A stretch of 64,000 nt of DNA, taken from NCBI RefSeq assembly GCF_058153355.1, contig NZ_CM177019.1; one strand, 5' to 3'. Each line of letters begins with the position of its first letter. Position 1 is the stretch's first letter. Below, one piece after another: positions 57,293 through 57,597 of the stretch. The notes beneath the pieces are model-generated. The model did not search any database and had not been told where the DNA came from. It worked only from the letters and a program-made list of their open reading frames with translations. Position numbers and translations under genes: made by a program.

Positions 57293-57520
57293 GATTGTCT
57301 GCTCCCCTGTCTTGTTATAGGAGCAGTATTTCGTTGCTGGTCAGTTTGATAAAGGAATTAAAACGTCTTGTTAAGAACAAAGCGTTTTTAGAAAAAAACT
57401 GGCAATGGTTAGCGAATATGCGCATTTTGCTATTTTTAACAAACATCGCCTGGTGCAGCGCTCACGCCTCTTATCATGCATACAAATACTGGGGCCGGAT
57501 AAATTTTATGCTCCAATGCT

Positions 57521-57573
57521 ATATACTATAGGGGGGTATGCATTGACATATAGCATACCCCCCTATAGTATAT
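57521..57573. promoter_or_regulatory. Candidate FrmR operator: perfect 21-bp inverted repeat with G6/C6 tracts flanking a TTGACA-containing spacer
   Basis: ATATACTATAGGGGGGTATGC - ATTGACATATA - GCATACCCCCCTATAGTATAT; sits about 25 bp upstream of the frmR start; G-tract flanked by AT-rich arms is typical of RcnR/FrmR-family operators. Confidence 0.65.
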
Positions 57574-57597
57574 TGCGTGCAGATGATGAGGTGCGAA

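Follow-up and report, generated by a model that had tools for sequence, protein, structure and literature searches.

The 305-bp interval separating tauA from frmR in the window (the whole stretch of DNA analysed, 64,000 nucleotides) is an island-free allele of a variable site, most likely produced by an old deletion of the fusKR-uhpC-afuABC (afu) block and not by a deletion of the genes found at this position in K-12. The deeper ancestral neighbour of tauA would have been the afu block; one deletion, before or around the E. coli/E. albertii split, would have removed it and left a flanking REP element, and since then the empty allele would have been passed on by descent or moved by homologous recombination across the conserved flanks. 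We infer both the descent of the Escherichia empty allele from an afu-bearing ancestor and the timing of the event.

The gap extends from the tauA start (57292, minus strand) to the frmR ATG (57598) and measures exactly 305 bp (57293..57597), close to the spacing of about 300 bp given in an earlier note on this sequence (Table 1). In K-12 MG1655 the starts of frmR and tauA lie 5,350 bp apart, and the interval contains yaiO, yaiX (split by IS2), yaiP, ykiC and yaiS. The earlier note had therefore given the K-12 gene order correctly, and its reservation that the K-12 interval might prove equally short can be set aside. The lack of coding capacity that it claimed was also borne out: the gap contains only mechanical ORFs (78, 43 and 86 aa), no RefSeq gene is annotated in it in strains R32_14_1F and E2348/69, and an Rfam scan of the spacer gave no family above threshold. 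Sub-threshold matches to microRNA models in the spacer were discarded as caused by the operator palindrome. The 86-aa ORF begins with ATG (57405-57665) and overlaps the frmR start in a different frame; this frame is free of stops across the spacer in five of five empty alleles, including that of E. albertii. It was rejected as a gene, since it crosses both the REP element and the FrmR operator and no annotation includes it, and it is probably meaningless. An assembly or scaffolding artefact that lost the intervening genes is scarcely conceivable, because the same contiguous junction is present in 595 of 5,426 complete E. coli genomes, finished independently of one another, among them E2348/69; the same arrangement was also found in draft genomes of other species.

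Table 1. Features of the tauA–frmR region and loci used for comparison (positions refer to the window unless a locus is named)
Feature	Coordinates	Strand	Remarks
tauA	56330..57292	minus	320-aa ORF, first gene of tauABCD; taurine ABC transporter binding protein; 99% aa identity with K-12 TauA; annotated as tauA in matching RefSeq genomes
tauA leader and promoter block, family-wide type	57293..57430	minus	138 bp
Linker	57431..57447	.	no identifiable origin; present in all empty alleles
REP (palindromic unit), solitary, decayed	57448..57483	plus	AAAT tail to 57487
frmR promoter/operator block	57495..57597	plus	common to all three alleles; 95% identity with the 103 bp upstream of K-12 frmR
FrmR operator (predicted binding)	57518..57576	plus	24-nt inverted repeat 57518-57541 / 57553-57576, with G6/C6 tracts
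frmR	57598..57873	plus	formaldehyde-responsive repressor; 91-aa product identical to K-12 FrmR
frmA	57908..59017		3' of frmR
frmB	59111..59944		3' of frmA
K-12 yaiS-tauA spacer	L001 10618-11232		compared with window 57293-57430
fusKR-uhpC-afuABC block in O157:H7	L002 9265-17057		

The census of the 5,426 complete E. coli genomes distinguished three alleles between tauA and frmR: (i) the yaiO-yaiS (yai) block, in 4,255 genomes (78%), (ii) the empty 305-bp spacer, in 595 genomes (11%, approximately one in nine), including E2348/69, and (iii) fusKR–uhpC–afuABC, in about 451-455 genomes (about 8%); about 2% carry none of the three. When the middle 164 bp of the spacer was used as the query, the full segment was found in 594 genomes, and its tauA-proximal 106 bp alone in approximately 450 more, mostly O157:H7. 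The third allele was missed by the earlier note, which had weighed only an ancestral state against a deletion. In afu-type genomes an 8-kb block lies between tauA and frmR, with genes for a LuxR-type response regulator, a MASE1 histidine kinase, uhpC and an ABC transporter annotated afu/fbpC. The block is named OI-20 in the literature and contains FusKR and the sugar-phosphate transporter AfuABC (PMC4546632). Genomes of the yai, afu and empty types share the same flanks, with tauABCD-hemB at the tauA end and frmRAB-yaiL at the frmR end, i.e., constant flanks enclose alternative contents, as at a multi-allelic island site. The exact FrmR protein of the window is present in all three genomic contexts, and these were the only contexts observed among the sampled contigs of public assemblies encoding it.

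The approximately 2% of genomes that fit no allele include three examples (matches H105, H106 and H109, respectively): in RM9513 a truncated end of yaiO and a hypothetical gene come after frmR, in S22EC the match covers yaiO but not the adjacent frmR portion of the query, and in FHI_NMBU_10 the same holds for afuBC sequence.

Strain CFT073 is of the yai type and E2348/69 is empty; we take both to belong to phylogroup B2, and the alleles therefore segregate within phylogroups. The nearest relatives of the window also differ from each other: the goat strain R32_14_1F has the empty spacer and strain 2017-02-2CC the afu block. The short spacer is common, and as a gene-order variant of a known variable site it is already annotated. 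It implies only that yaiO-yaiS and fusKR-afuABC are absent from the strain of the window, and matters little otherwise. A literature search found no paper on the tauA–frmR junction itself.

Several observations concern the wider neighbourhood. Region 52831-63452 of the window shows 94-97% identity to K-12 across hemB, tauABCD, frmB, yaiL, mhpT and mhpE, an unusually high divergence within E. coli, and its closest complete genomes reach only about 98%; the window may come from a deep lineage or cryptic clade. An intact 962-aa ORF occupies 49450-52338, the place of the yaiT/ehaB autotransporter gene, which is split by IS3 in K-12 (yaiT) and frameshifted in the O157 strain JEONG-1266 (ehaB). In CFT073 and E2348/69 lacI adjoins yaiL and the mhp operon is absent, whereas in the window, K-12 and O157-like strains mhp lies at the yaiL side; a second variable site is thus located within 5 kb of the first.

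The architecture of the spacer suggests two back-to-back control regions, the tauA and frmR promoters, with the linker and a decayed REP between them; in the 305-bp allele the two regions are only about 65 bp apart. On the frmR side, the BLAST match to O157 starts at 57506, and by eye homology with substitutions continues back to about 57495. The arms of the predicted operator are 96% complementary. The inverted repeat encloses a -35 element (TTGACA, 57543-57548) and overlaps a -10 element (TAGTAT, 57566-57571), with a spacing of 17 nt and a promoter scan score of 10/12. Tandem G/C tracts, ATAC/GTAT flanks and overlap with the promoter are all present, which identifies a putative type I FrmR operator; tandem type I FrmR sites have been reported for the E. 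coli Pfrm promoter (PMC5146963).

The REP element was revealed by BLAST against all loci compared. Within the window, BLAST aligned it with BIME copies at 62175-62203 and 62276-62304 (29 nt, 89.7% identity, E=2e-4). A hand count on the alignment gave 30/36 positions identical to the canonical copy of the window's BIMEs, and 33/36 for the E. albertii copy, located at the same position. The hairpin of the spacer element is predicted at -7.3 kcal/mol, compared with -13.3 kcal/mol in E. albertii and -14.8 kcal/mol for the canonical copy, whose dot-bracket shape the spacer element shares. The element thus combines a match to the REP consensus with an imperfect palindrome capable of forming a stem-loop. 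It is extragenic and lies between two divergent promoters, which is atypical, as the usual place of REP elements is after the 3' end of a gene; REPs of the outgroups follow afuC or mmuM at the equivalent place. We read the element of the window as a relic. Tandem BIME/REP arrays with a 101-bp period occur elsewhere in the window, at 59945-60161 (frmB-yaiL spacer; 2.2 copies, 91% matches) and 62116-62399 (mhpT-mhpE spacer; 2.8 copies, 97% matches). The linker (57431-57447) has no significant match in the O157 or K-12 flanks, and a search of the O157 flanks for a source of 57431-57505 yielded no significant similarity.

The tauA side of the spacer (57293-57430) matches O157:H7, which carries the afu allele, through 57430 at 95.7% identity. 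The tauA-proximal part, to about 57413 (approximately 120 bp), is kept in Citrobacter werkmanii, Klebsiella spallanzanii and Enterobacter. In comparison with E. albertii, 57293-57430 is 94% identical, while the tauA coding sequence reaches only 88%. BLAST matches of K-12 to the spacer are confined to its two ends, 38 bp at tauA (57293-57330, 97%) and 103 bp at frmR (57495-57597, 95%), and BLAST finds nothing in K-12 that corresponds to the middle 164 bp. The difference between K-12 and the window is therefore a replacement (approximately 5.2 kb vs 164 bp) rather than a simple insertion or deletion.

This comparison bears directly on the "clean deletion" of K-12 genes considered in the earlier note, which we reject: the spacer holds a 138-bp tauA promoter of which K-12 retains 38 bp, and a deletion from a K-12-type chromosome therefore could not have restored it. 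That this strain or ones closely related to it recently lost a K-12-type yaiO-yaiS block by a clean deletion is accordingly very improbable. The yai allele, as the majority allele in E. coli, would be the default parent, and the frmR-side boundary is the same in the yai and empty alleles. Against this, the spacer contains 100 bp of family-wide promoter (57331-57430) and the REP, both absent from K-12-type chromosomes, it contains no yai-derived sequence, and the same 305-bp junction recurs in the 595 genomes and in two other Escherichia species. The promoter comparison already refutes a recent deletion of the yai block.

It is the K-12 block that looks foreign to the site. The GC content of the yai block is 45%, and that of its flanking spacer 30%, vs 52-56% in the neighbouring genes; among the sampled loci the block occurs only in Escherichia (E. 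coli and E. whittamii). This combination of atypical composition and patchy distribution is that of a horizontal island. The yai block of K-12 is thus a derived, lower-GC replacement, which displaced most of the tauA promoter. The tauA promoter of K-12 is likewise a derived variant. The other option of the earlier note, an ancestral state preceding the K-12 insertions, holds in so far as the K-12 block is derived; the short form itself is probably not primordial but an old deletion of the afu block, since the latter is a family-wide neighbour of tauA (see below).

How far the K-12 promoter is related to that of the window was also considered. Between -125 and -38, 41 of 87 positions agree in register (shuffles 25±4), but an offset of -21 scores equally well (43), so that homology between -125 and -38 is uncertain. 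Full homology of the K-12 promoter was therefore dropped, and only two short conserved blocks are claimed. The E. whittamii promoter is an intermediate form that keeps TTTATCAAA.

The empty allele itself is uniform. It is 305 bp long, with zero indels, in the window, R32_14_1F, E2348/69, Escherichia sp. E1V33 and the type strain of E. albertii, i.e., five genomes of three species share the same junction, and 594-595 genomes have the full middle segment, as expected of one allele and not of many deletions. Spacer identity among empty alleles ranges from 99% down to 89% and tracks the divergence of the flanking genes; between the window and E. albertii it is 89% for the spacer and 86-92% for the flanking genes, with frmR exceptional at 97%. 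One junction at species-level divergence shows one old allele rather than repeated recent deletions. The empty spacer is therefore old and not a recent event in the strain of the window.

The afu block was traced through the Enterobacteriaceae by a TauA-based scan with one genome per species (80 loci; E. fergusonii, E. marmotae and E. ruysiae are not among them). It adjoins tauA in more than 30 species of at least 9 genera, lying divergently beside it in many Citrobacter, the Klebsiella oxytoca group, Raoultella and several Enterobacter, as well as in Leclercia, Silvania, Lelliottia, Huaxiibacter and Intestinirhabdus; in the afu-bearing outgroups mmuM is on its far side. Nucleotide identity between O157 and these genera is 83-86% for afuABC and uhpC and 72-81% for the two-component genes, compared with 78-85% for tauABCD and hemB (82-85% in the comparison with Citrobacter). 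The GC content of the afu block is 54%, vs 45% for the yai block. Neither atypical composition nor divergence out of step with the flanks, as expected of a horizontal island, was thus found for the afu block. REPs lie directly downstream of afuC in many outgroups, and outgroups of the same genera that lack the block show the order mmuM, REP(s), tauA promoter. In afu-type E. coli a plain hairpin, and no REP, follows afuC. In Citrobacter gillenii (L017 9173-9658) the C-terminal half of AfuC (residues 185-346, 88% aa identity) is fused to the fusR-proximal spacer, a direct scar of an internal deletion of approximately 7.3 kb in the afu block, i.e., a loss in progress.

Taken together, the afu synteny, the core-like divergence, the common losses, the C. 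gillenii scar and the flanking REPs favour an old block lost repeatedly. The afu-present and afu-absent states are both widespread, so parsimony alone does not fix the ancestral state of Escherichia. The main competing explanation, which we consider unlikely yet far from negligible, is that the 305-bp spacer is the original Escherichia state and that the yai and afu blocks were inserted later, the afu block being re-imported from another enterobacterium by recombination through tauA. It would account for the presence of the same junction in E. albertii, presumably an early-branching Escherichia, as in E. coli, and afu-less states are indeed common in other genera. The frmR-proximal block of K-12 (CCGGATAAATTTTAT) is also nearer to the empty allele than the O157 version (TCGGACAACAATTAT). 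Moreover, reviews describe FusKR/OI-20 as laterally acquired, one of them specifically by EHEC (PMC11644481; PMC4546632). Re-import is nevertheless difficult to reconcile with the afu genes of E. coli, whose similarity to every sampled outgroup is no greater than that of the flanking core genes, and with the native GC content of the block. Repeated loss is a simpler account than repeated gain at exactly one site in many genera, loss is seen in progress in C. gillenii, and a REP between divergent promoters is more easily a leftover 3' flank.

The points against an old deletion of the afu block come largely from the junctions themselves. The deletion scars or short direct repeats that the earlier note proposed to look for are present at none of them: searches of the spacer and of the surroundings of both islands for direct and inverted repeats found no repeats flanking the islands, and neither target duplications nor microhomology were found at the junctions. 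A candidate 30-bp gapped repeat on the two sides of the O157 block fell short of significance, with 122 of 1000 shuffles scoring as well. Neither direct-repeat recombination nor an integrated element is indicated; neither block carries an integrase, and the IS2 of K-12 lies inside yaiX, not at the block boundary. The linker and REP segment (57431-57494) has no counterpart in extant afu-type E. coli, and the deletion endpoints therefore cannot be reconstructed. The REP could also be a de novo insertion, which would count against a deletion.

In a broader reading, for which we judge the chances evenly balanced, OI-20, which the EHEC literature treats as a laterally acquired pathogenicity island, is the ancestral neighbour of tauABCD in Enterobacteriaceae, was lost by most E. 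coli (by replacement in K-12, by an old deletion in the window), and the three alleles have coexisted across Escherichia since before the E. coli/E. albertii split. If this is true, CysB/Cbl control of tauA is known only from studies of a derived chimera, the promoter of K-12, which differs from that of about 19% of E. coli and of other genera. The K-12 promoter is reportedly activated by CysB and Cbl; as it differs from that of a fifth of E. coli and of other Enterobacteriaceae, the regulatory footprints of K-12 tau may not transfer. The reviews appear to have the polarity of OI-20 reversed, as the data favour ancestral presence and repeated loss over acquisition by EHEC, which bears on the discussion of FusKR and AfuABC as virulence acquisitions.

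The region can be compared with several known systems. At the tauA promoter, K-12 and the window share the gene and the same 38-bp leader, as well as the blocks GCCG.TTTTTT.CTAA.AA and TAATTC.TTTA at equal distance from the ATG; beyond these the K-12 promoter is divergent and is followed by 577 bp of DNA with 30% GC, whereas the window has the family-wide promoter. The frmR side resembles the E. coli Pfrm with its CsoR/RcnR-family sites (Denby et al., 2016; PMC5146963), both having a G/C-tract inverted repeat with ATAC/GTAT flanks over the -35/-10 elements; nothing material differs, and upstream of -103 the context varies among the three alleles. With the REP/BIME palindromes of E. coli the element of the window shares a 36-nt imperfect palindrome of the GCCTGATGCG...CTTATCATGCCTAC pattern, but unlike them it is a single decayed copy (30/36) placed between divergent promoters and not after the 3' end of a gene. 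As for OI-20, its synteny and divergence in the outgroups speak for long residence at the site, contrary to the lateral acquisition described in the reviews. Finally, the site as a whole recalls the O-island/K-island replacement sites that have reportedly been described in E. coli: one shared backbone position, tauA–frmR, is occupied by different blocks in different strains, O157:H7 having the response regulator, MASE1 kinase, uhpC and afuABC there, while the window has neither OI-20 nor the K-12 segment.
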